A stretch of 59,664 bases of DNA from Kiritimatiellia bacterium (GCA_016284515.1 JAEEOY010000088.1:1-59664); one strand, 5' to 3'; numbered from the stretch's first letter, positions 12,626-59,664 are shown. The notes: a model not told the origin generated them from the letters alone. Program-made: numbers and translations.

Positions 12626-13282
12626 ATGGAGAAGACATTTAAGAGAAAGGCGCGGCAGGACGGCGTGGAGACGCGCGAGGCGATACTCGCTGCGGCGGAG
12701 GCGGAGTTCTCGGAGAAGGGCTTCGCGCTCGCCTCGGCGCGGGAGATCTGCCGCCGCGCGAAGGTCAACTCGGCTTTGATGAACCGCTACTTTGGCTCGA
12801 AGGAGGCGCTCTACCGCATTGTCGCGAAGCGGCTCTTCGGCGATCTCGGTGCGCCGCTTGCGCGGCTCGCGGACGGCGTGAAGGACGAAAAGTCGTGGCG
12901 TGCGGCTGTTAGCGAGTGGGTGGACGACATGCTCTTCATGACGCTTCCGACGGAGAAGGCGCAGAAGCTCTGCGCAGGGCTATTCCGCCACGAGGTGACG
13001 AGCCCCACGAAGTTCCACGCCGAGTTCAAGGAGTCGTTCGGACGTCCGGTATACGAGGGGCTGAAGAAGCTTCTCGCGATGAAGGTCAAGGACGACGAGC
13101 AGCTCGACCTCTGGGCGTCGTCCATCTGGGCGCAGGTTTCGGTCTATGCGCTTGCGGACGTCAAATGGCACGACTCCTTTAGGCCGAAGGGAATCGACAA
13201 CCGTGCCTGGGCCGAGAAGGTGAGAGACCACATCTGCGATGGAATCTTTGCATCGACAGCCGGGGAGAAATTAACCTTGTAG
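12626..13282 (+). CDS. TetR/AcrR family transcriptional regulator
   Basis: N-terminal HTH TREAILAAAEAEFSEKGF, REICRRAKVN, RYFGSKEALY. Confidence 0.92.
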   Translation: MEKTFKRKARQDGVETREAILAAAEAEFSEKGFALASAREICRRAKVNSALMNRYFGSKEALYRIVAKRLFGDLGAPLARLADGVKDEKSWRAAVSEWVDDMLFMTLPTEKAQKLCAGLFRHEVTSPTKFHAEFKESFGRPVYEGLKKLLAMKVKDDEQLDLWASSIWAQVSVYALADVKWHDSFRPKGIDNRAWAEKVRDHICDGIFASTAGEKLTL

Positions 13283-13340
13283 AACATGCAGAAAATGTAT
13301 CTACACGATCTACACGATCTACACGTTCTACACGGCTAAA
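13279..13340. repeat. Family B inverted 9-mer element (GTAGAACAT... / TCTACACGN x4, ending in CTAAA)
   Basis: gtagaacat gcagaaaat gta, then tctacacga tctacacga tctacacgt tctacacgg ctaaa; opposite arm also at 59404-59434. Confidence 0.85.
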
Positions 13341-13358: not shown

Positions 13359-15404
13359 ATGAAAAACTCTTTTTTACCGCTTTATGTCACCAACTTCTTC
13401 GGGACGCTGAACGACAACTTCCTGAAGACGCTGGCGTGCCTGACCGTCATCGGATGGATTGCCGACGAGCGCGTGCGGTCGCTCCTGACGAGTGTTGTCG
13501 CGGGAATGCTCGTCCTGCCCTACATTCTCTGTTCGCCGCTTGCCGACCGGCTGACCGCCGTGTGGCCGAAGCGTCGGATCGTACGCGCGGCGAAATGGGC
13601 GGAACTTCCGATCATGGCCGTTGCGATTGCGGGCTTCGCGCTCCACTCACCGTGGTTCGTCATCGGCGCGGTTCTCCTGATGGGGCTTCAAAGCTCGCTC
13701 TACTCGCCCGCCAAGTACGCGCTTGTGCGCGACATCGGCGGCGCGGAGAGAATCTCGACCGGCATGGGCGGCATGGAGGGCGTCTCGTTTCTCGGCGTGC
13801 TGCTCGGCACTGTGGCGGGTGGCCTTGTGGCCGACCTTCAAGTCCGCCATTCCGAGTGGAATCTCGCCTACTGCTGCCTTGCGACATTCGCCGTGCTCGG
13901 CCTTGCGGCGAGCTACACAGTCAGGGCGAAAGAGGAGCTCAACCGCTCTTTCCACGCCATCAACCCGATTCGCTATATTGCCCGTGCCTACCGAATGGCC
14001 GGTCGCTACGACGGGCTCAATGCCGTCATCTTCACGCTCTCCGTCTTCTGGTGGGGCGCGGCGATGCTCCAGATGGGACTTCTCGTCTACGGCAAGTCGA
14101 AAGTCGGGCTAAACTTGAGCGACACCGGCACGGGGGTACTCCTTTGCGGCGCTGCCGTTGGCATCGTCGCCGGGCAGGTCATCGCCGGCTTTGTCGACAA
14201 ACGTCGCTTCCTTCTCGGCGCGACGCTCTTGACCGGCTGGATCGCCGCGGCGCTTTTTGCCGTTCTCTACTTCGTGCCGCTTTCGCCGACGGCGTTCGGC
14301 GTGGTGCTGGGGCTTCTTGCCTTCGATCTCGGCTTTTTCAAGCTGCCGTTCGACGCCGAGATACAGAAGGTCGTGAAGGGACCGAAGCTCAACACGATGC
14401 TTGCCTACTTCAACCAAGTGTCGTTTCTCTTCATGCTCGCGGCGAGCGGATGCTACGCGCTCGTGAGCTGGGCGTTCGGGCCGAAGGCGTTTCTCCTCTT
14501 GCTCGCGGTCGTCTTTCTCGTAGCGCCGTTCCTCTTCGTGTTCTGTTACCGCTCGGTTCTGCTGTGCGTCGGCCGCTGGGTCTTTGCCTGGAGATACAAG
14601 GTTGAGGTCGAGGATAAGACAGGATTAACAGGATTGACAGGATTAAGAGCTGGGGGAGATCCCCAGACCCCCGAAAATCTTGTTAATCCTGTAAATCCTG
14701 TCAAGAAAACATCGCTCCTCGTCTTGCCGAATCATCCGGCGATGGTGGACCCGATGCTCGTGGGCGTAACGTTCTGGAAGACGCCGCTTAAGCCGCTTTC
14801 AGACGAACTCTTCTTCCACACCGGCATCGTCGCTCCGCGCGTTTTGAAGACACTTGGCGCGGTGGCTGTTCCCGATCTTCGCAAGCACCGCACGGCGAAG
14901 GGCGCGACAATCGCGCGGGGTCTTGGCGACATCGTGAAGTCGACGCTTGAAGACGGCGGGAACGTCATCTTTTATCCCTCGGGGCACATCCAGACCGAGG
15001 GCGAGCAGGAAGACATCGGCACGCGCCAGCTCGCGTACAACATGTGCGGCGATCTGCCCGAGGGGGTGCGCGTCATTGGCGTCAGAACGCGCGGACTCTG
15101 GGGGTCGATCTGGTCGCGCAAGGGGCGCAAGAATTCGCCCTCGTTTGTGCCGACTTTCATCAAGAGCGTATTCCTGTGGTTCTTCTGGTCGCCGTTCGTC
15201 CCGCGCCGCCGCGTGACGATGCACATCGAGGACCTGACCGACCGCGTGAAGGAGTGGTCGAAGCTTACGCGGCTCGAGTTCAACCGAAAGCTGGAGGAGT
15301 GGTACAACGACGAACCACAGACCAACGCAGACGTGCCGTCGCTAACGCTCGGCCAAAATAACGCAAGCGTTAGCGCAGCGTTGTCTGCGAAAGTCTGTGG
15401 TTAA
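13359..15404 (+). CDS. MFS (LplT-like) transporter fused to a PlsC-like acyltransferase domain (Aas-like)
   Basis: TNFFGTLNDNFLK, LYSPAKYALV, ~12 TM helices; acyltransferase NHPAMVDP and FYPSG. Carries repeat-derived peptides at 14618-14702 and at the C-terminus. Confidence 0.85.
   Translation: MKNSFLPLYVTNFFGTLNDNFLKTLACLTVIGWIADERVRSLLTSVVAGMLVLPYILCSPLADRLTAVWPKRRIVRAAKWAELPIMAVAIAGFALHSPWFVIGAVLLMGLQSSLYSPAKYALVRDIGGAERISTGMGGMEGVSFLGVLLGTVAGGLVADLQVRHSEWNLAYCCLATFAVLGLAASYTVRAKEELNRSFHAINPIRYIARAYRMAGRYDGLNAVIFTLSVFWWGAAMLQMGLLVYGKSKVGLNLSDTGTGVLLCGAAVGIVAGQVIAGFVDKRRFLLGATLLTGWIAAALFAVLYFVPLSPTAFGVVLGLLAFDLGFFKLPFDAEIQKVVKGPKLNTMLAYFNQVSFLFMLAASGCYALVSWAFGPKAFLLLLAVVFLVAPFLFVFCYRSVLLCVGRWVFAWRYKVEVEDKTGLTGLTGLRAGGDPQTPENLVNPVNPVKKTSLLVLPNHPAMVDPMLVGVTFWKTPLKPLSDELFFHTGIVAPRVLKTLGAVAVPDLRKHRTAKGATIARGLGDIVKSTLEDGGNVIFYPSGHIQTEGEQEDIGTRQLAYNMCGDLPEGVRVIGVRTRGLWGSIWSRKGRKNSPSFVPTFIKSVFLWFFWSPFVPRRRVTMHIEDLTDRVKEWSKLTRLEFNRKLEEWYNDEPQTNADVPSLTLGQNNASVSAALSAKVCG
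14618..14702. repeat. Family A inverted element (ACAGGATTA x3 ... AATCCTGTN x3) inserted in frame in the CDS
   Basis: gacaggattaacaggattgacaggatt-N29-aatcttgttaatcctgtaaatcctgtc; translates as TGLTGLTGL...LVNPVNPV. Confidence 0.95.
15313..15402. repeat. Family C hairpin element copy 1 (forms the C-terminus of the Aas-like gene)
   Basis: Terminal IR AACCACAGAC/GTCTGTGGTT; inner IR CGCTAACGCT/AGCGTTAGCG; the final T begins the TAA stop. Confidence 0.95.
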
Positions 15405-15428
15405 AAACGAAGGATGATGAGATGAAAG

Positions 15429-15524
15429 AACCGCAGACGAACGCAGACGTGCCGTCGCTAACGCTCGGCAGAGATAAAGGAGGCGCAAGCGTAAGCGCAG
15501 CGCAGTCTGCGAAAGTCTGTGGTT
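15429..15524. repeat. Family C hairpin element copy 2 (also a 34-aa mini-ORF, 15422-15526)
   Basis: Near-identical to copies 1 and 3; ORF MKEPQTNADVPSLTLGRDKGGASVSAAQSAKVCG*. Confidence 0.95.
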
Positions 15525-15550
15525 AAACAATAAGCAAAAGGAGACAAGCT

Positions 15551-16027
15551 ATGGTAACAAAGGAAGAAACAGGTAAGATAATTGGCGTATGCATGGATGT
15601 GTTCCATGAACTTGGTTCAGGATTTCTGGAGCCTGTATACCAGGACGCGGCCGAGATAGCCTTCAGGCAGGCTGGCATTCCCTTTGTTCGCGAGGCGCAA
15701 TGTCCGATTTATTTCCGAGGTGTGAAGATCAATCGGAATTATGAGGCGGATTTTGTTTGCTATGGAGAAGTGATTCTTGAGTTCAAGGCGGTGAAGTGCT
15801 TTGCGCCGGAGCACAAGGCGCAGTTGATCAATTATCTCAAGGCGACACGCATTCCTCTTGGGTATCTCATCAACTTTCACGGTGAGAGGCTGATTTGGGA
15901 GCGCATCGTCTACACTTCGGCAGAGAGTAAACCGCAGACGAACGCAGACGGGCCTTCGCTAACGCTCGGCCAGGATAAAAAAGGCGCAAGCGTTAGCGCG
16001 GCGCAGTCTGCGAAAGTCTGTGGTTAA
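15551..16027 (+). CDS. GxxExxY protein (PD-(D/E)XK-like nuclease, PDDEXK_3), copy 1, with repeat-derived C-terminal tail
   Basis: GFLEPVY motif; YEADFVCYGEVILEFKAV; LLNYLKAT-like QLINYLKAT; GYLINF. Confidence 0.95.
   Translation: MVTKEETGKIIGVCMDVFHELGSGFLEPVYQDAAEIAFRQAGIPFVREAQCPIYFRGVKINRNYEADFVCYGEVILEFKAVKCFAPEHKAQLINYLKATRIPLGYLINFHGERLIWERIVYTSAESKPQTNADGPSLTLGQDKKGASVSAAQSAKVCG
15930..16025. repeat. Family C hairpin element copy 3 (3' end of GxxExxY copy 1)
   Basis: aaccgcagacgaacgcagac...gtctgcgaaagtctgtggtt(aa). Confidence 0.95.
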
Positions 16028-16070
16028 AAACGCAAAGAGGTATTAACAGGATTAAGAAAGGAGCGGAAGC

Positions 16071-17264
16071 ATGAATGTCAACAGAGTGTATGCCGAGGCG
16101 ATAGCGAAATGGGAAGGCGCCAAATCCTGGAGTGGCGACAAGGCGACAAAGCCGTTTGCCGTTCTGTGGGATGATCCGGAAAGCGGCGCGGACTTGAAGG
16201 TCGTGTACAGGACGCCGAAGGAAGAGGGCGTATCCCTGCTCCTGCTTGGGTTCGCGACATGTGTCGTCTTGGCGGCGATTACCGCTCTCCTTTGTCGTGC
16301 CTTTCAGCCAATGTGCGCCATCTTGATAGGCGTACCGCTAATCTTGGCTTTTGCTGTCATCGTGGTGGTTCGCGCCATGCGCCTTGGATGGGTTCGCATG
16401 GAGTATGAGTTCAGGCGAGGAATCGCCACCGTGCGCTATTCAATGGCGGAACACTGGAAGCGTGAGTGGTCGTTCCCCTACAACGACAGGACGAGGCTCT
16501 TCTCCCGCCTGCGGCCGTTCGCCTGTGGGTTCGTCATATCGGAATACGGATTTGTGGATGAGGCGGGCAGCGTCCTGTTTCGCACAAAGCAGGCGATGGA
16601 GCTTCCTCACTACGACTACTTCTCGCTTGTCGTGACGGGTTATCTTTCGCGCGACGAAGACGAAGATAAGTCCGCACGGGATATTGCGGAAAAGTATCGT
16701 GAATGCACTTTGCGTGACAAATCGCTGTCGAGAAAGTGGTGGGCTTTCGTTGTTGTTTCCGCTACGATTGTAATCGCCATGCAATTCATTGACAGCTGTA
16801 GAAAGCCGACAAAGGAAGAAGATCGTGTGCAGAAGGTGATATATGAGGCGTTCCTCAACGGCGGCGACTATCTGGCGGTTGCCGAGGCACAGAAGGCCAA
16901 GTGCGGCAATCGCGCGCAGAAGGGGATAGACGAGGTGTTGGATTACTGTGCGGAATTCTCGGCGGCGCGGCAAGAGCTGAAGGATGCGGGGGCGATTGAG
17001 GACGCTCGCAGTCGCCGTGAAGTGGCGCAGGGAGTAGCTTCAAGATTGCGCGAACGGGTAAAGGCGATGGAAGCCGTCAGACGCAGAAGCGTTGCCAATT
17101 ATGTCTTTGCCCATTCCTTCGAGGATCTGGTTGGGGTGGCCGAATCACTGCGTTCCGCTCCAGACGGCAAGGTAATCGTAATCATAAACGAGAACATGAA
17201 AACCATCATAAACGAGAACATGAAAACCGCCGCGCCGCAACAATCATCGGAGGAAACGAAATGA
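16071..17264 (+). CDS. Hypothetical membrane protein
   Basis: RBS AAAGGAG; three hydrophobic segments; lower GC than core genes. Confidence 0.75.
   Translation: MNVNRVYAEAIAKWEGAKSWSGDKATKPFAVLWDDPESGADLKVVYRTPKEEGVSLLLLGFATCVVLAAITALLCRAFQPMCAILIGVPLILAFAVIVVVRAMRLGWVRMEYEFRRGIATVRYSMAEHWKREWSFPYNDRTRLFSRLRPFACGFVISEYGFVDEAGSVLFRTKQAMELPHYDYFSLVVTGYLSRDEDEDKSARDIAEKYRECTLRDKSLSRKWWAFVVVSATIVIAMQFIDSCRKPTKEEDRVQKVIYEAFLNGGDYLAVAEAQKAKCGNRAQKGIDEVLDYCAEFSAARQELKDAGAIEDARSRREVAQGVASRLRERVKAMEAVRRRSVANYVFAHSFEDLVGVAESLRSAPDGKVIVIINENMKTIINENMKTAAPQQSSEETK
17181..17228 (+). repeat. 24-bp tandem duplication (IINENMKT x2)
   Basis: atcataaacgagaacatgaaaacc twice. Confidence 0.9.
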
Positions 17265-17308
17265 ATGCTCGGCTGATGTTTGCGCGGTGTGTCGCGGGAA
17301 GGTTTCTA

Positions 17309-17756
17309 GACAGGATTAACATGATTAACAGGATTAAGAATGATGAATATAGATGAATTATGCTATAAGGTCATTGGGGCTGCGATGGCAGTGCATCGGC
17401 ACTTTGGCCCCGGATACCTCGAGGAGGTGTATAAAAACGCCTTGATAGTGGAGTTGACGGCGCTTGGTATTCACACAGAAAAAGAAGTTCCCATTGCGGT
17501 TAACTACAAAGGCATTCGCGTGGGAGATTATAGGGCCGATGTAATAGTTGATAATCGACTCATTCTAGAATTGAAAGCTGTAACGAATATCAACCCAAGT
17601 CATGAGGCCCAGGTTGTGAACTATCTTAATGCGACTGGAATAGAGGATGGGCTCTTGATCAATTTTGGAGCGCACTCTCTTCAGCACAAACACAAATACC
17701 GTGTGTATCGCCAGCCGCAGGCTCTTAATCCTGTCAATCCTGTAAATCCTGTCTAA
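17309..17756 (+). mobile_element. Putative element: family A inverted arms enclosing GxxExxY copy 2
   Basis: Left arm 17309-17336 (GACAGGATTAACATGATTAACAGGATT); right arm 17727-17753 plus TAA. Mobility is inferred only. Confidence 0.55.
17340..17756 (+). CDS. GxxExxY protein (PD-(D/E)XK-like nuclease, PDDEXK_3), copy 2
   Basis: GYLEEVY motif; YRADVIVDNRLILELKAV; QVVNYLNAT; GLLINFG; ends in arm-encoded NPVNPVNPV*. Confidence 0.96.
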   Translation: MMNIDELCYKVIGAAMAVHRHFGPGYLEEVYKNALIVELTALGIHTEKEVPIAVNYKGIRVGDYRADVIVDNRLILELKAVTNINPSHEAQVVNYLNATGIEDGLLINFGAHSLQHKHKYRVYRQPQALNPVNPVNPV

Positions 17757-17826
17757 AAAACAAAAGGGAGAAGTAGAGATGAATATGCGAAAGAGATTTG
17801 CTCTGGGTAACGCGGGAAGGTTTTTA

Positions 17827-17902
17827 GACAGGATTAACAAGATTAACAGGATTATGAGAAGAGGATGGAAGTCTTAATCTTGTGAATCCTGTAAATCCTG
17901 TC
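17827..17902. repeat. Family A element, empty (about 22-bp loop)
   Basis: Left arm 17827-17853; right arm 17876-17902 followed by TAAA. Confidence 0.95.
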
Positions 17903-17928
17903 TAAAGCAGAAAAGGAAGGAAGCAGAA

Positions 17929-18132
17929 ATGATCAACGGAATGACATGGGGAATCTACTATCTGATTCTGTTTGCAGTTTCGTTTGCAGGCTGCCTTGGG
18001 TGGGCTTTGAAACTGATTCGCGGCAACAAGCAGGGGCGTGCGGTAATGGTGATGCTGCTGGGTCCGTTTTGCTTCGCCTCTGTAGTCTGGGTTGCAACAT
18101 TGATCGTCGTGCTTTGCATGTATGGTATTTAG
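17929..18132 (+). CDS. Small hypothetical membrane protein (67 aa, 2 TM)
   Basis: RBS AAGGAAGG; two hydrophobic helices; AT-richer. Confidence 0.65.
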   Translation: MINGMTWGIYYLILFAVSFAGCLGWALKLIRGNKQGRAVMVMLLGPFCFASVVWVATLIVVLCMYGI

Positions 18133-18160
18133 CCACAAAGAACACAAAGGTCACAAAGAG
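18131..18160 (+). repeat. CACAAAG 9-mer repeat arm
   Basis: agccacaaagaacacaaaggtcacaaagag, directly after the stop codon. Confidence 0.75.
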
Positions 18161-18197
18161 GAGCGGAGAAATGGAAATGAACGCGGGAAGGTTTTTA

Positions 18198-18434
18198 GAC
18201 AGGATTAACATGATTAACAGGATTTTAGCATGGAGAACAGGAGATACAGAAGATAGGGTTTTTGGCATGGAGAACAGGGGAAGCAGGAGGAAAACTGGGG
18301 TTGCCGCACCCTGCATTGACCCGCCTGCGGCGCTCGCTTCGCTCGGGGGATACCCAGCCCCCGCCGAAGGCGGACCTAAACTCTCCTGCATCTCTTGCTC
18401 TACCTGCTTAAAAAACAATCCTGTAAAACCTGTC
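18198..18434. repeat. Family A element with nested CAGGAG/CTCCTGC inverted arms
   Basis: Outer A arms; inner arms acaggaga.../ctcctgcatctcttgctctacctgcttaaa; near-identical to 19409-19607 apart from a ~40-bp insert. Confidence 0.92.
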
Positions 18435-18459
18435 TAAACAAAGACAAGGAGAAAGTGAA

Positions 18460-19311
18460 ATGAAACGAGTGATGGTTATGCTTGTGATTGTTGTGACCTG
18501 TCTGGCACAGCAGGGGTGTTATACGACCGTTGATCGCAAATGGCAATATTATGCATCAACAAAGTGGCTTTGGGAGAAGCGTCAATCTGGGCCTGGTGCC
18601 TGGTTTCCTGAAGTGCAGACCACTGGCGAGGGTATGTATCTTGTGGGATGTTTCATACCTGTGGTTGGCTGGGTTACGCTTTGCCCCGCTGGATTAGCGT
18701 TAGGTGTTGTTGAACGGTGTGTCGTAGCACCTGTGTTTGACACTGTTTGCCTTCCCATTGACTACATCAACAATGTGAATTATCGGATTGATGAAAAGCA
18801 CTTTAAGATTTTCGAGGACCGTCTTGATTCCGATTTGGATGCTGTTCTTGCGGATTCAATGTATTGGTCAGATCGGACAGATGACAAGTTCTGCTATTTG
18901 AGTCGGTGGCTTTCGCAAAACGGAGATAAGGTTGAATTGACGTCGAAACGTGTATCTGCGATACTATCACTTCTTGGGTGGTATGCAAAAGAAAGGAGGT
19001 GCCTGGATGATGAAATGTGGTCAATTTACCTGGAGATATTGAGGGTTATATACTACGATAAATCCTGCGAACGTGAAACGCTGACGGCATTGGCGAATTG
19101 GTTTGTTGAAATGAAGAATTCCACCAGAGTGTATGTGGATAGTTTTTTCCATGCTGGAATTTATCTCAGTCGTGAGGACTGGGTGAAGTTCACTGATGAA
19201 CAGTTGAAGGTTCTTCTGGATGCCGATATCATGAGTCTGGAGATAACGAGAGTTCTCAAGATACGCCAGGAAAAACGCGAAAAGGAAGCCAATGGGCAAA
19301 CCGTGGACTGA
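18460..19311 (+). CDS. Putative lipoprotein (N-terminus weakly YceK/YidQ-like), low GC
   Basis: Lipobox-like LAQQGC; PVFDTVCLPIDY; 23/60 G+C in line 18781-18840. Confidence 0.65.
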   Translation: MKRVMVMLVIVVTCLAQQGCYTTVDRKWQYYASTKWLWEKRQSGPGAWFPEVQTTGEGMYLVGCFIPVVGWVTLCPAGLALGVVERCVVAPVFDTVCLPIDYINNVNYRIDEKHFKIFEDRLDSDLDAVLADSMYWSDRTDDKFCYLSRWLSQNGDKVELTSKRVSAILSLLGWYAKERRCLDDEMWSIYLEILRVIYYDKSCERETLTALANWFVEMKNSTRVYVDSFFHAGIYLSREDWVKFTDEQLKVLLDADIMSLEITRVLKIRQEKREKEANGQTVD

Positions 19312-19408
19312 AGACTTCAAGTGTGAGTCAAAGTGCAAAAAGAGGAAAGGAGCAAACTTATGAATATGCGAAGAGGATTTGCTGCAGCTGCCGCGGGAAG
19401 GTTTTTTA

Positions 19409-19607
19409 GACAGGATTAACATGATTAACAGGATTTTTGCATGGAGAACAGGAGATGCAGAAGATGGTTTTTGGCTTGGAGAACAGGAGAGGCAGGAGGA
19501 AGACTGGGGTAGCCATCCCAGACCCCGCCGAAGGCGGACCTAAACTCTCCTGCATCTCCTGCTCTACCTGCTTAAAAAACAATCTTGTCAATCCTGTAAA
19601 TCCTGTC
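19409..19607. repeat. Family A element with nested CAGGAG/CTCCTGC arms (second copy)
   Basis: Left arm 19409-19435; right arm 19581-19607 followed by TAAAAAA. Confidence 0.95.
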
Positions 19608-19646
19608 TAAAAAAACAACTGGAACGAATTTCAAGGAGGAACAACA

Positions 19647-22085
19647 ATGAAAAGAATGATGTTTGCAGCTATGGTCGCCGCGGCGGCGTTTGCGCCGCTT
19701 GCGGGGCGGGCGGATGAGAGCCGCCTCAACCTCTGGCCGCTTGTCGGCTACGAAGATGGCGCGCTGGACGTCATCTGGCCGCTCGGACACTTCAAGGATT
19801 CGGACGAGTGGCGGTTCTTCCCCGTCATCATGGACCACGACCTCTTCTGCGTCTTCCCCGAGTTCTGGTTCATGGACGACGGTTTCGCCGTCCTGCCGTT
19901 CTACGCGAAGTACGACTTCAGGGAGGGCACGCTCTTCCCCGTGCTCTGGTGGGACCTCGCGGGCTCCGACAAGATGCACAGCGTCTTCCCGCTCTACTAC
20001 TACCATGGGCGCGAGAATGCGACGACCTTCTGGGCGGGCTGCGGACTTGCGGGCTACAAGCGCTACAACGACGAGACTTCCCACTGGCTTCTGCCGCTCT
20101 ACATGCGCACGGGGAGCGGATTCTACTCCATCCCGTACTCAAGGACGTCTCATTCCACGAGCAGGGACGAGGCGTATCTCTGCGGCTTCGCGGGGCGGAA
20201 GACCGCCCAGGACGGCACGACGTACGCGCACTGGTGCTTTCCGCTCTGGCACAAGGACCAGAACAGCTTCACTTCGCTGCCGTACCACCGCGAATGGGAC
20301 GACAAGGGGGAGACGACGTCATGGCTCTCCGTCCTTGCGCTCTCCGGCGGCTGGCGGGACCGTCCCTACTGGAAGGAGCGCTATCTCCTCGGCCTCGCCG
20401 GACGCAACAGGAACGACAAGAACGGATACAGCGACTCCTGGCTCGCGCCGTTCTACTACGCGGACAACCAGGGCACGCTCGTCACGCCCGTCTACGGTCA
20501 GGCCAAGACGGCGAAGTGGGGGCTTCCCGGGTGGTACACGGACGACCATACGTTCGCCTCTCCGCTCTGGTATAGCCATACGGACGACCAGAACCGCCTC
20601 GACCAGTGGATGGTTCCGCTCCTCCTGTCGGGCGGCGTCTACCGCGACGGCGTGCGCCGAAACGGCTTTCTCCTGAACGTCGCGGGCTGGATGTCGGGCG
20701 ACGACGGCTATTTCGCCTCGTGGTGCATGCCGCTCTACTTCAAGGACAGCGAGGGCACGTTCATCACGCCGCTCTACGGACGCAACAAGTCCTCGCAGTG
20801 GTGCTTCCCGCTCTGGTACAACGACGAGCGGTCGCTGTATTCCCTCCTCTGGTGCCAGAGGAAGGACGAAGCGGGCGAGCTCGAGTCGTGGGTGGCGCCG
20901 CTTCTCCTATCCGGCGGAAGGACGAAAAGCGACGGTACGCGCGAATCGGACATCCTCCTCGGACTCGGCGGCGCGACGTGGGGCGGCAAGGACGGCCTGC
21001 GCTCGAGCTGGGCGTTTCCGTTCTACTACGAGAACAGCGCGGGCGCGTTCGTGACGCCGCTCGGCGGCTGGAACCGGGACTCGAGCTGGATTCTGCCGCT
21101 TTTCTACACCGACAAGGAAGCCTTCGTCTCGCTCCCGTACATGCATGGCCGCAGCGAGTCCAAGAAGTCGGACACCTATGTCGTGCCGCCGCTTCTCTCG
21201 GGCTACACGAAGCACGACGACGGCCGCACGGACCTGTGCGCGCTCGTCCTGTACGGACACAGCCGCGGTGCGCAGGGCGAGACGCGCTACGACTACCTGC
21301 TGCCGCTCTACCACTACAACGGCGAGACGGGCGACTTCATCTCGCTCCCCTACGGCCGCGACGTGCGGGGCTCCTATACCAACACCTGGTGGGCGACGCC
21401 GCTCGTGGGCTTGCGCTCCGGGTCGAAGACGGGCGGCTGGCTGTTTCCGCTCTTAAACCGCCGGAAGGACGCCTCCTTCGACAAGGACCTTGCGCGGATG
21501 GATTCGCCTACGATCCCGGACGACATCACGTTCTCGGATCAGGTGAAGTGCTGGACGAACGGCGAGGGGAGGGTGTGCTTCCGCACGAACTGCATTGCCT
21601 CGGCCCGGATCGACTCCGAGGCGCGCGGCTCGGTGCTGCTGGCGTCCGACCACGACCATTGGGTCTATAGCGGCGTCTCCTGCGGGGAGAAGGAGTATAC
21701 GCTGCACGAGGGCTCCAAGCAGGGCAACCGCATTTTCTTCAACAGCGAGTCCTCGCGTACGGTGACGTACGACATCCCTTCGCGCCGGAAGAAGGGCGAG
21801 AGGTCCGACTCCGAGACGATGGCGCTCTGCGGACTCTTCTACAGCGAGCACAGGGAAGACTCGATGAAGGGTACGTCGCATACGCATACGCGCGTCCTCT
21901 GGAAGCTCTGGGACCGCGAGGAGCGCGACGGCAACGTGACGGTCGATGCCTTCCCGGGCTTCACCTACGACTCGAAGAAGAACGGCTATTCGAAGACCTC
22001 GTTCCTCTGGCGGTTCTTCCGCTACGAGAACGATCCCGAGAAGGGGAAGAAAGTCGACCTCTTCTTCATCCCCGTGTGGAGGTGA
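19647..22085 (+). CDS. Secreted aromatic-rich repeat protein of unknown function
   Basis: Signal peptide; recurrent W/F-x-x-P-L/F-Y motifs, e.g. SWLAPFYYADNQGTLVTPVYG, SWCMPLYFKDSEGTFITPLYG, SWAFPFYYENSAGAFVTPLGG. Confidence 0.85.
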   Translation: MKRMMFAAMVAAAAFAPLAGRADESRLNLWPLVGYEDGALDVIWPLGHFKDSDEWRFFPVIMDHDLFCVFPEFWFMDDGFAVLPFYAKYDFREGTLFPVLWWDLAGSDKMHSVFPLYYYHGRENATTFWAGCGLAGYKRYNDETSHWLLPLYMRTGSGFYSIPYSRTSHSTSRDEAYLCGFAGRKTAQDGTTYAHWCFPLWHKDQNSFTSLPYHREWDDKGETTSWLSVLALSGGWRDRPYWKERYLLGLAGRNRNDKNGYSDSWLAPFYYADNQGTLVTPVYGQAKTAKWGLPGWYTDDHTFASPLWYSHTDDQNRLDQWMVPLLLSGGVYRDGVRRNGFLLNVAGWMSGDDGYFASWCMPLYFKDSEGTFITPLYGRNKSSQWCFPLWYNDERSLYSLLWCQRKDEAGELESWVAPLLLSGGRTKSDGTRESDILLGLGGATWGGKDGLRSSWAFPFYYENSAGAFVTPLGGWNRDSSWILPLFYTDKEAFVSLPYMHGRSESKKSDTYVVPPLLSGYTKHDDGRTDLCALVLYGHSRGAQGETRYDYLLPLYHYNGETGDFISLPYGRDVRGSYTNTWWATPLVGLRSGSKTGGWLFPLLNRRKDASFDKDLARMDSPTIPDDITFSDQVKCWTNGEGRVCFRTNCIASARIDSEARGSVLLASDHDHWVYSGVSCGEKEYTLHEGSKQGNRIFFNSESSRTVTYDIPSRRKKGERSDSETMALCGLFYSEHREDSMKGTSHTHTRVLWKLWDREERDGNVTVDAFPGFTYDSKKNGYSKTSFLWRFFRYENDPEKGKKVDLFFIPVWR

Positions 22086-22105: not shown

Positions 22106-22217
22106 ATGTGCAATTATCCAATATCCAGTATCCATTATCCAATATGCTGTATCCAGTATCCGATGATGGCGGAGAGATGTTGAGTATTGGCTATTGGATA
22201 TTGGATATTTGCACATT
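22106..22217. repeat. Inverted 7-mer (TATCCAN / TATTGGA) hairpin element, empty
   Basis: aatgtgcaa + tatccaa tatccag tatccat tatccaa ... tattgga tattgga tatt + tgcacatt. Confidence 0.85.
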
Positions 22218-22274
22218 GAACAAAAGATATTTGCACATTAAACAAAAATAGAACAACCTAAACAAAGGAGTGAA

Positions 22275-23174
22275 ATGACAATGGCTATAATGGCGGCGAC
22301 GGTGTGGTTCATCCCCGGGTGGCTCCGTTCGGAGAAGCCCGCGGACGGCGTCCTGGAGTGCGTCTCGAACGCATTCCCGACGGCGCAGGTCGAGTTCAAG
22401 GCGTGGGACGGCGACAACGTCGTCTGGCCGCTCTCGGTCGATTCGGCGGACAAGGAGTCGTGGCGCTTCGCGTTCGAGATCGCGATGATGCCGAAGGAGG
22501 AGCGCGAGTCGCTCACGCTTATCGGACACTCCCTCGGTGGACGCATCATCGCGCGCATCCTCGCGCGCCTCGAAGAGCACGGAATGAAGATACGCCAGGC
22601 GATACTTATGGGCGCGGCGATTCCGTCCGACGACCCCGACCTCGAGAAGATGGGCCGCGCAAGCGCGCTCCCGGTTCTTGCCGTGTGCAATCCGGACGAC
22701 GTCGTGCTGCGGTACGTCTACACGATGGTTGGCGCCGTGGTGGGCGGGGAGAAGGCGACGGCGTTCGGGGCGAACGGAACGCTGAGCCCGTGCGAGAACG
22801 TGGTCGAGTGCGTGACTCCGACGAACATAACTCGCCAGGTCGAGATTGGCGAGAAGTGGGCGAAGGTTTCCGCGTTGAAGGACATCGCAAACCACCACGA
22901 GAAGTTCTACATCGGATACGCCAAGCGCCTTCTCGACGGCGAGGAGCCGACGGGCAAGGTGATGGTTCCGCAGGGCTTCCCCGGCGTAGAGGGGCATGTA
23001 ATGGATTCGATGGTCTGGTGGGACGTCCTCGATTCGTCGGGCGGATGGAAGCTCGAGAAGAATAAGGTGACGGGCCACTGCCGGATCATAGACCCAGACA
23101 AGCTTCGCACTGCCTGGGGCCGCGAGGCGGAGATGCGCTCGGCGTTTGAGAAGGTGAAACAACAATTGAAGTAA
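22275..23174 (+). CDS. Alpha/beta hydrolase (DUF726-like) with a small C-terminal domain
   Basis: Nucleophile elbow GHSLGGR; ILMGAAI; NPDDVVLRYVY; C-terminal WWDVL...GWKLEKNKVTGHCRIID. Confidence 0.75.
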   Translation: MTMAIMAATVWFIPGWLRSEKPADGVLECVSNAFPTAQVEFKAWDGDNVVWPLSVDSADKESWRFAFEIAMMPKEERESLTLIGHSLGGRIIARILARLEEHGMKIRQAILMGAAIPSDDPDLEKMGRASALPVLAVCNPDDVVLRYVYTMVGAVVGGEKATAFGANGTLSPCENVVECVTPTNITRQVEIGEKWAKVSALKDIANHHEKFYIGYAKRLLDGEEPTGKVMVPQGFPGVEGHVMDSMVWWDVLDSSGGWKLEKNKVTGHCRIIDPDKLRTAWGREAEMRSAFEKVKQQLK

Positions 23175-59206: not shown

Positions 59207-59251
59207 CCTCCCGCCGCGTCGCCAGGGGGTTGCGTCGGGCCTGTGCTCTAC

Positions 59252-59350
59252 AGGGGGTTCCGTCGCTCCGCGACGCAACAATGAAGGGCGTGGAGCAGAT
59301 GACTAGAAAACCACTTTCCATTCGCCACCCTCGCATGCTCCCGATTATTT
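59252..59350 (+). repeat. 99-bp direct repeat copy 1 (starts with a GTTGCGTCG/CGACGCAAC-type hairpin)
   Basis: Matches 59558-59656 with one mismatch. Confidence 0.95.
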
Positions 59351-59403: not shown

Positions 59404-59525
59404 TAGCCGGGTAGAACATGTAGAGCATGTAGAAGGGGGTGGAGAGGCCGTTTGACTGGGGGAAGCGGCGTCTCGCCGCTTCAAGATATCTCACACAGAG
59501 GCGCGGAGAGGCCGAGAGCGCAGAG
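59404..59525. repeat. Cluster of repeat arms: family B arm, 29-bp REP, CACAGAG/GCAGAG arm
   Basis: tagccgggtagaacatgtagagcatgtagaa; gactgggggaagcggcgtctcgccgcttc; cacagaggcgcggagaggccgagagcgcagagg. Confidence 0.88.
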
Positions 59526-59557: not shown

Positions 59558-59656
59558 AGGGGGTTGCGTCGCTCCGCGACGCAACAATGAAGGGCGTGGA
59601 GCAGATGACTAGAAAACCACTTTCCATTCGCCACCCTCGCATGCTCCCGATTATTT
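59558..59656 (+). repeat. 99-bp direct repeat copy 2
   Basis: agggggttgcgtcgctccgcgacgcaac...gattattt. Confidence 0.95.
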
Positions 59657-59664
59657 GATTTCTT

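Follow-up and report, generated by a model that had tools for sequence, protein, structure and literature searches.

A stretch of 59,664 nucleotides from a Kiritimatiellia bacterium (GCA_016284515.1 JAEEOY010000088.1:1-59664), referred to here as the window, was found to carry two genes for GxxExxY proteins (GxxExxY-1 and GxxExxY-2), each associated with a different family of inverted repeats. The placing of such a gene inside a palindrome recurs throughout the GxxExxY family, the type of arm follows the protein clade, hairpins of the same kind without a gene greatly exceed those that contain one, and related strains differ in whether and where the elements are present. These observations incline us, if only slightly, towards reading each GxxExxY gene as the coding core of a selfish nuclease-palindrome element with its own cognate specificity, similar to systems of repetitive extragenic palindromes (REPs) and REP-associated tyrosine transposases (RAYTs) or to homing elements.

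Both proteins scored above the curated cut-offs of two family models (TIGR04256, 'GxxExxY protein', 35 bits; PF13366, PDDEXK_3, 22 bits). GxxExxY-1 matched PF13366 with an E-value of 1.3e-35 (122.7 bits) and TIGR04256 with one of 1.5e-37 (128.5 bits), the corresponding values for GxxExxY-2 being 1.7e-40 (138.5 bits) and 6.8e-42 (142.5 bits); neither protein matched Y1_Tnp in the family search. An initial annotation of this DNA had described the two proteins as divergent outside their core motifs, and this was confirmed, with 33% identity between them and the catalytic motifs shared (GFLEPVY in GxxExxY-1 and GYLEEVY in GxxExxY-2, ADF..LEFK and ADV..LELK, QLINY and QVVNY). Residues found to be invariant over 18 diverse members, namely E28 (of GxxExxY), D67, E77-x-K79, Q91, N94 and Y95, are present in both. 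An AlphaFold2 model of GxxExxY-2 (pLDDT 89.5) was confident over residues 1-120, with residues 121-138 disordered, and its closest solved folds according to Foldseek were Cas4 SSO0001 (4ic1), lambda exonuclease, the AdnAB nuclease domain and MGME1 (E 9e-5 to 1e-2, TM ~0.5), with the catalytic domain of I-Bth0305I (3r3p) at rank 26; a sequence search of the PDB detected no solved relative. From the family matches, the invariant catalytic residues and the fold likeness, both proteins are predicted to be intact, minimal RecB/Cas4-like PD-(D/E)XK nucleases.

The family comprises 17,652 representative clusters at 50% identity (E ≤ 1e-3), or 5,057 at E ≤ 1e-10. No member was detected among 2.9 M viral contigs, and of 72,556 plasmid records just 8, all of them non-mobilizable, contained one. 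The family is therefore regarded as chromosomal; with these counts, and with no match in PADLOC or PHROGs, identification as a defence system or a phage gene was rejected. Some members of 250-295 aa (P0361, P0370, P0372 and others) carry the GxxExxY domain twice in tandem. Such proteins may be natural pseudo-dimers or products of read-through between neighbouring elements, and these fusions hint that the protein may act as a dimer. A 2012 survey of the PD-(D/E)XK superfamily gave the function of GxxExxY/PDDEXK_3 as 'Unknown', full-text literature on GxxExxY, PDDEXK_3, PF13366 and TIGR04256 yielded incidental mentions only, and no description of an association between GxxExxY and palindromic repeats was found there.

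The family A motif AATCCTGTNAATCCTGT had 19 matches in the window, all between 14.6 and 19.6 kb, against 0.01 expected from shuffles, and these form five palindromes (A1-A5, Table 1). As initially annotated, GxxExxY-2 is enclosed by family A arms, those of A2. Each arm consists of three ACAGGATT units at 9-nt spacing (the left arm reading GACAGGATT-AACATGATT-AACAGGATT-AAGA), the two arms are 89% complementary and 383 nt apart, and the gene fills the interval exactly. Its ATG stands directly after the AAGA of the left arm, the inner unit of which gives AGGA 6 nt before the ATG, and its stop is the TAA of GTCTAAAAA in the right arm, following the tail NPVNPVNPV. Around the dyad the element reads ATTAAGA, gene, GCTCTTAAT, compared with an uninterrupted ATTAAGAGC/GCTCTTAAT. 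An arm homologous to the A2 left arm was found upstream of homologues in loci L001-L019. An intrinsic terminator was rejected as an identity for family A, its stems being AT-rich with a T-run before and an A-run after on either strand.

GxxExxY-1 lies between two complete family C hairpins (C2 and C3), again in agreement with the initial annotation, and the latter hairpin encodes its last ~30 codons (tail PQTNAD..SAKVCG). The family C motif had three matches in the window against 0.21 expected. Family C is a palindrome of ~97 nt in three copies, built of two units at 10-nt spacing and an inner stem; the description of the repeats as 9-mer families accordingly holds for family A, with its 9-nt spacing, and does not hold for family C. 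As single-stranded DNA the family C copies folded with -29 to -35 kcal/mol (z -5 to -7), the hairpins overall having z of -5 to -8. Hairpin C1 is absent from the end of the orthologous gene in L212, and a C2-type 5' hairpin is also present in L210 and L211 in other contexts.

The annotation's wording that the proteins are 'fused' to the repeats was too strong. The repeat-encoded tails are incidental read-through into the hairpin as far as the TAA at the outer end of the arm: the GxxExxY-2 tail is disordered in the model and proteins of distant clades stop before the arm, on which grounds a functional role for the tails was rejected. Nor are such tails special to GxxExxY, being found also on the acyltransferase upstream and on a RAYT-like gene of sister strains.

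Among the 120 GxxExxY-2 homologues listed (69-100% identity), nearly all, more than 100 of them, end in NPVNPVNPV-type peptides or variants of these (NLVNPVNPV, NSVNSVNTV), and several begin with DRINRI-type peptides, which indicates a left arm just upstream of those homologues. The C peptide ends seven of the eight closest GxxExxY-1 homologues (79-96% identity); homologues at 55-64% identity have other repeat-peptide ends, such as RTTDNTDRLR, and those at ~50% have no tail. The layout of left arm, ATG, gene and right arm was confirmed in the DNA of seven contigs (proteins 70-81% identical), in one of which (L001) the element stands within a polysaccharide operon. L003-L006 differ from L001/L002 at the same locus by an extra 9-nt-periodic repeat module.

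Eighty genome loci were then chosen by protein similarity alone, with one genome per species, and in the 77 testable loci the upstream flank was aligned to the reverse complement of the downstream flank. The score reached at least 30, the highest shuffle score being 30, in 58 of the 77 in inverted orientation, compared with 15 of 77 for the direct-orientation control; the median score of inverted flanks was 45 and the shuffle mean 17. The loci derive from Cyanobacteria, Acidobacteria, Verrucomicrobia/Kiritimatiellia, Planctomycetes, Bacteroidota, Ignavibacteria, Cloacimonadota, Gemmatimonadota and Proteobacteria (about nine phyla), and the gene-in-palindrome layout was seen in every major clade of the sample. 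Arms were 25-50 nt long and usually consisted of about three tandem units (for example ATCCGCAGATTACGCAGATTACACAGAT, AACCGCAGAGGCGCAGAGAACGCAGAG, AACCGCCAAGACGCCAAGAACGCCAAG, GTCCACGAATTCCACGAATTAACACGAATT and GACAGGATTAACAGGATTGACAGGATT at other loci), with a best period of 9 nt in 35 of 55 arms. Chance or a local artefact was rejected on the basis of the shuffles, the presence of the same modules in independent assemblies (L208, L216, L008) and the recurrence across phyla. The pairing of gene and arms is real and family-wide, and goes beyond local chance.

Mapping of the adjacent repeat family onto the protein phylogeny, a check put forward with the initial annotation, gave a positive result, the arm family following the protein clade. 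The co-evolved sequence specificity suggested in that annotation is partly supported, to the extent that comparing sequences allows. Protein identity and arm similarity were correlated (Mantel Spearman 0.44, a value reached in none of 500 permutations), clustering gave one arm family per protein clade, and the nearest protein neighbour below 95% identity had the same arm class in 46 of 53 loci. Within the Nostocales, CGCAGAG and CGCCAAG arms split proteins with a mean identity of 84% and a maximum of 93%; in 24 of 25 cases the protein closest by sequence had the same arm type, and the change of motif is concerted over the repeated units of both arms. In the metagenome-assembled genome MAG202 three paralogues are present, each with a different arm type, L008 with ACAGGATT, L013 with ACAGAATT and L216 with the family C type. 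Over 13 distinct family A elements, arms were ~89-90% identical, a figure set partly by the method of arm detection, with genes at 59-68% DNA identity and outer flanks at ~56%.

When metagenome contigs (soils, sediments, peat and guts) were scanned with the family A arm itself, an unbiased sample of 120 loci was obtained, only five of which contained a GxxExxY open reading frame (ORF), the remaining 115 lacking this gene. The loops between arm pairs fell into two classes, one of up to 213 nt without a gene and one of 375-441 nt that always held GxxExxY and nothing else; a single 309-nt loop held a truncated GxxExxY copy. Within the window, four of the family A hairpins contain no gene and there are two additional family C hairpins; arm depth in the source metagenomes was 3-5x flank depth. 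In aligned arm pairs the 8-mer cores were conserved, partly by construction, and the free spacer positions 10 and 19 were complementary no more often than by chance (33% and 24% of pairs); among mismatches there was a slight excess of G·T over A·C (58 vs 42). Since the spacers pair at chance level, selection appears to act on the repeated 8-mer in inverted arrays, as for protein-binding sites, and not on base pairing.

Strains related to that of the window differ with respect to both elements. L212-L215 lack the C-hairpin/GxxExxY-1 module as well as GxxExxY-2, L216 and L208 carry GxxExxY-1 together with the gene for a 397-aa membrane protein that follows it in the window, and L210 and L211 have hairpin, GxxExxY-1 and hairpin in other contexts. 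GxxExxY-2 and the gene-less hairpin A3 travel together in a 615-bp block (17298-17912), which begins 5 nt before the A2 left arm and ends just past A3. In MAG202 this block immediately precedes the orthologue of the gene located at 22275 in the window, a site at which the window has no A hairpin, indicating that the arm-bounded unit changes place between related genomes. The polymorphisms seen are of whole blocks including the arms and not gene-only differences. Two direct copies of GATATTTGCACATT(G/A)AACAAAA lie at 22190-22260, upstream of the gene at 22275, which is the site filled in MAG202. In a comparison for excision joints, Logan contigs were found to break at the arms, with joints mostly from other genomic copies, so that this comparison says nothing on mobility. 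Metatranscriptome contigs contain the arms and GxxExxY-1, DNA carry-over being possible and end information lacking.

Under the favoured reading, a nuclease gene of about 120 codons occupies the dyad of a palindrome whose arms are short arrays of a repeated 8-10-nt motif, and the gene-less hairpins would relate to the gene-bearing copy as REPINs do to the RAYT gene, or as miniature inverted-repeat transposable elements (MITEs) do to the autonomous element. Probably acting as a dimer, the nuclease would recognise the motif repeated in its own family of arms, where it would nick or cut the DNA and so favour the copying, insertion or recombination both of the hairpins and of the element itself; this scheme of DNA binding, cleavage and mobility is one that we infer from the arrangement of genes and repeats. 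The role of the nuclease could be that of a mobiliser of hairpins, or that of a homing-type gene invading cognate hairpins at their centre. Relocation of the whole block including its arms favours the former, and a GIY-YIG-like ORF within the family A arms of L015 fits the latter. This 271-aa ORF (L015 2106-2990; motif FYIGETGE..RFRTH; Pfam E 5e-4, below cut-off) lies directly upstream of the GxxExxY gene of that locus.

Several points weigh against such a scheme. A RecB-like domain of 120 aa is small for 8-mer-specific recognition, and most of the folds nearest to it belong to exonucleases that process ends. The same correlation between clade and arm is to be expected if gene and arms simply descend together as a unit, the 80 loci are weighted to Nostocales and Kiritimatiellia and so are not independent, and about one quarter of the loci have no clear flanking repeat. 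The 9-mer-array design also occurs outside GxxExxY elements, and hairpins of this kind could be moved by an HUH enzyme; family A arms bracket, in addition, the GIY-YIG-like ORF of L015 and small membrane genes of the island surrounding the two elements. No target-site duplication of at least 3 nt was found at any of 80 family A elements, 2-nt flank matches numbering 15 against 5.3 expected with redundant loci included. The absence of a target-site duplication also led to the rejection of a DDE-type MITE.

The main rival holds that the hairpins are REP-like repeats moved by another enzyme, either a RAYT-like HUH transposase or host recombination, and that GxxExxY lodges in their loops with an unrelated job and no action on the arms, the loops tolerating insertions and the arms supplying a ribosome-binding site, a stop codon and insulation. 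This is considered unlikely, although a candidate enzyme does exist in sister strains. Between the TetR gene and the major facilitator superfamily (MFS) gene, L212-L215 carry a gene for a 382-aa RAYT-like (HUH, IS200-like) protein (L212 5853-7001; motifs MPNHVHFII and WQRDFWEK..YIRENP; Y1_Tnp 24.8 bits over a short stretch), which ends inside a family B 9-mer array that encodes its C-terminus and belongs to a 2.5-kb segment bounded by B arrays; at this site the window has just the B hairpin. A second RAYT-like gene is located 1.1 kb from the GxxExxY element in L141. The vast excess of hairpins over GxxExxY genes, the hairpin-encoded tails of the acyltransferase and the RAYT-like gene, and the lack of target-site duplication, as in HUH transposition, would also suit an enzyme of this type. 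What this rival leaves unexplained is the nesting of one protein family in 58 of 77 loci over about nine phyla, and the fact that the arm type follows the subclade even at up to 93% protein identity; in the family A sample, moreover, every loop of 375-441 nt contained GxxExxY only. The tetranucleotide GT(A/G)G is absent from family A (TTTTAGACAGGATT) and family C (AACCGCAGAC), GTAG occurring in family B units (CGTGTAGAT) only, and a tblastn search of the window with the RAYT-like protein gave no match.

A role of the arms in RNA, with the two paired in a long stem that encloses the ORF and serves either for processing, by RNase III for instance, or for translational control, would make the pairing of gene and arm family a matter of cis-regulation, and the nuclease might then act on RNA. 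The layout of an ORF in a stem resembles the Coxiella intervening sequence, a selfish ORF-bearing element of 428 nt excised by RNase III (PMC4990558), the AGGA of the inner left arm could be a Shine-Dalgarno sequence hidden by the stem, the arms are abundant in metatranscriptome contigs, and hairpin folding is strong (z -5 to -8). Pairing in RNA is nevertheless hard to reconcile with spacers that are not complementary (0.33, 0.24) and with an excess of G·T over A·C too weak to give a strand-specific pairing signal, and such a role leaves unexplained the gene-less copies, the in-frame copies inside genes and the relocation of whole blocks. It is weaker than the RAYT-like mobiliser and judged improbable. 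Neighbour orientation was not consistently co-directional (37+/31- upstream, 49+/21- downstream, from a crude ORF-based count), which stands against an RNA-level role and on which a promoter-less operon hitch-hiker was likewise rejected. The hairpins had no match in Rfam, where only sub-threshold miRNA-like hairpin hits were obtained. Weaker still, and very improbable, is an integron-like cassette array with the hairpins as attC-type sites and GxxExxY as a frequent cassette gene. The low-GC island is indeed a series of short co-directional ORFs with imperfect palindromes between them, entire gene modules joined at arm and leader distinguish the strains, and the family C end GGTTAAA comes close to GTTRRRY, which with RYYYAAC makes up the attC core sites; the family A end, however, is GTCTAAA, and a scan of neighbouring genes, which did not take in the rest of the window protein by protein, gave no integrase. 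An attC identity was rejected for want of the core sites and an integrase. Single GxxExxY elements also stand alone in ordinary operons (such as the polysaccharide cluster of L001) and in about nine phyla, hairpins occur in frame inside a gene, and the nested form has arms on both sides of the gene, none of which fits cassettes.

Extended to the whole family, the nuclease-palindrome reading would make GxxExxY the sole protein of an unrecognised and widespread class of mobile or selfish DNA (about 17,600 clusters at 50% identity, in at least nine phyla), which reads the tandem 8-10-nt arm motifs and drives the spread or recombination of hundreds of gene-less hairpins, as a PD-(D/E)XK counterpart of RAYT-REPIN, and in which protein-motif specificity diversifies readily, given different motifs with proteins up to 93% identical. 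This wider proposal is put forward tentatively and is open to considerable doubt. It offers a concrete prediction for a very large family without assigned function, that of a sequence-specific nuclease acting on its own arms. If true, it would provide an origin for the 9-mer-array hairpins common in Cyanobacteria, Acidobacteria, Bacteroidota, Planctomycetes-Verrucomicrobia and others, and would account for the peptides of repeat origin (NPVNPV, DRINRI, PQTNAD and the like) found in gene predictions. Close strains differ at these repeats in the island and in the acyltransferase linker, making them a source of strain variation, and if specificity were simply encoded these tiny nucleases could be useful reagents.

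Table 1. Positions in the window of the GxxExxY genes, the repeat hairpins and neighbouring features
Feature	Position	Strand	Description
Family B hairpin/array	13276..13337	.	TCTACACGN x4, upstream of MFS gene
MFS/acyltransferase ORF	13359-15404		C-terminal ~30 codons and stop come from hairpin C1
Hairpin A1	14617-14704	.	Family A, without gene; in frame within MFS/acyltransferase ORF
Variable low-GC island	15313..19640 (~15.3-19.7 kb)	.	Short genes alternating with hairpin repeats
Hairpin C1	15313..15404	+	Last ~30 codons and stop of MFS/acyltransferase ORF; DNA fold -29.8 kcal/mol, z -6.9
Hairpin C2	15429..15527	+	23 nt upstream of GxxExxY-1; fold z -5.3
GxxExxY-1	15551..16027	+	158 aa; core ~residues 1-120, tail hairpin-encoded; PD-(D/E)XK nuclease-like
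Hairpin C3	15930..16028	+	Overlaps GxxExxY-1 3' end and stop; fold -34.6 kcal/mol, z -7.1
397-aa membrane-protein ORF	16071..17264	+	Variable island gene; after partial A unit and shared leader 16040-16070
A2 left arm	17303..17339	+	37 nt
GxxExxY-2	17340..17756	+	138 aa; PD-(D/E)XK nuclease-like; fills loop of A palindrome
A2 right arm	17723..17759	+	37 nt; encodes NPVNPVNPV and TAA stop
Hairpin A3	17821..17906	.	Family A, without gene; fold z -7.2
Hairpin A4	18192..18441	.	Family A; ~190-nt loop module
Hairpin A5	19402..19614	.	Family A; ~140-nt loop module related to A4 loop

The variable island has a GC content of 46-55%, compared with ~62% in the rest of the window, and is limited by the MFS/acyltransferase gene on one side and a gene starting at 19647 on the other. 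Its gene content varies among the sister strains L208, L212-L216 and L008, and the metagenome runs holding sequence of the window are bovine or gut. With these runs, and with homologues bearing the names Kiritimatiellae or Kiritimatiellia, the contig is placed in a Kiritimatiellia bacterium of ruminants or the gut. Upstream of the island, hairpin A1 is located in the linker between the MFS and acyltransferase domains, with the linker peptide TGLTGLTGL..NLVNPVNPV (DKTGLTGLTGLRAGGDPQTPENLVNPVNPVKK). At this spot, orthologues of 82-96% identity are either empty (..VEIDGLKSVAQDKPLLVL..) or filled, by the A1 hairpin, by an A hairpin whose loop is longer, or by unrelated inserts, and at the DNA level A1 stands in place of ~29 nt of the empty allele; the linker is therefore regarded as an insertion hot spot that tolerates translated hairpins. 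The RAYT-like protein of the sister strains likewise contains an in-frame palindromic insert (VAGLSPRPEKAGLSPRIEKAG).

The 397-aa ORF had no match in protein-family searches; its gene is present in L208 and L216 and absent in L210 and L212, and a perfect 24-nt tandem duplication (17181-17228; IINENMKT twice) was identified near its 3' end. A junction of the form AACAGGATT(A/G)AGAAAGGAGCGGA(A/G)GC-ATG is common to different island genes (397 aa and 115 aa), being found at 16026-16070 in the window, 1813-1852 in L208 and ~8925-8971 in L212, and where strains differ in gene content the joint falls at this arm-plus-leader sequence, a pattern suggestive of recombination at the arms. A conserved module of ~45 nt (ATGAAT..GC..GCGGGAAGG) precedes family A left arms at 17261-17307, 17779-17825 and 19360-19406, and partially at 18170-18190. 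It reads as the start of a signal or lipoprotein peptide (MNARK.FAR.VAG), the same start running in L208 into a real-looking lipoprotein gene, and is possibly either what is left of interrupted genes or a common leader. The loops of A4 and A5 (18224-18417 and 19438-19578) share a module of 140-190 nt with its own inner inverted repeat (19434-19464 and 19546-19576), so that they are nested palindromes with no evident gene. A further 9-nt-periodic array adjoins family A arms at 18134-18158 (CACAAAGAACACAAAGGTCACAAAG) and at ~590-615 in L003 (CGCAAAGAACGCAAAGAGCGCAAAG). At the cut end of the contig, a direct repeat of ~100 nt with a hairpin (GTTGCGTCGCTCCGCGACGCAAC) occupies 59228-59350 and 59560-59664, and a family B-type array together with a CACAGAGG/CGCAGAGG array lies at 59405-59434.

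Comparison with known systems showed partial likeness to several. The closest folds to GxxExxY-2, at E 9e-5 to 3e-3 and TM ~0.5 in Foldseek, belong to Cas4/RecB nucleases (SSO0001 4ic1, lambda exonuclease, AdnAB), which have the same E…D…ExK…QxxxY signature; GxxExxY differs in being only ~120 aa, without an Fe-S cluster module, helicase or partner domains, and no CRISPR context was seen in the window. With MITEs and insertion sequences the elements share terminal inverted repeats and many short non-coding derivatives per coding copy, but they have no DDE or other known transposase and no target-site duplication of at least 3 nt, and the whole coding element is ~450 bp. The 23S rRNA intervening sequence of Coxiella (S23p ORF, PMC4990558) is similarly a selfish element of ~430 nt with an ORF of ~120 codons, of unknown role, in a stem loop of terminal inverted repeats. 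GxxExxY elements are in contrast not located in rRNA, encode a nuclease and not a four-helix bundle, have motif arrays as arms, and are multicopy and intergenic or in frame within genes. Gene-less short versions of the 23S rRNA intervening sequence exist in other taxa.

Among free-standing and intron-borne homing endonucleases, I-Ssp6803I is also a PD-(D/E)XK enzyme. The likeness to these lies in a small nuclease gene at the centre of a (pseudo)palindrome, possibly its own interrupted target, that is polymorphic for presence and absence, and in the occurrence of a second nuclease type (GIY-YIG-like) within family A arms in L015. The putative GxxExxY targets are, however, multicopy repeats and not a unique conserved gene site, no intron or intein is involved, GxxExxY is absent from phage collections, homology extends over only ~30 bp on each side, and cleavage is putative.

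REP/REPIN-RAYT systems combine repetitive extragenic palindromes with a REP-associated tyrosine transposase (Bertels & Rainey 2011, PMC3116915). The likeness to RAYT-REP pairs put forward in the initial annotation did not extend to the enzyme, which is PD-(D/E)XK (RecB/Cas4-like) in GxxExxY and an HUH/Y1 transposase in RAYT, or to the repeats, since the GxxExxY arms are two to three tandem 8-10-nt units without GTAG; the GxxExxY gene also lies inside one palindrome and the RAYT gene between REPs, and GxxExxY paralogues are numerous, in about nine phyla. It stood as a functional analogy only, with a pairing that is family-wide: in both systems inverted copies of a short palindromic repeat stand on either side of one small enzyme gene, hairpins without a gene occur in large numbers across the genome, each of several enzyme paralogues in a genome has a repeat group of its own, and there is no target-site duplication.

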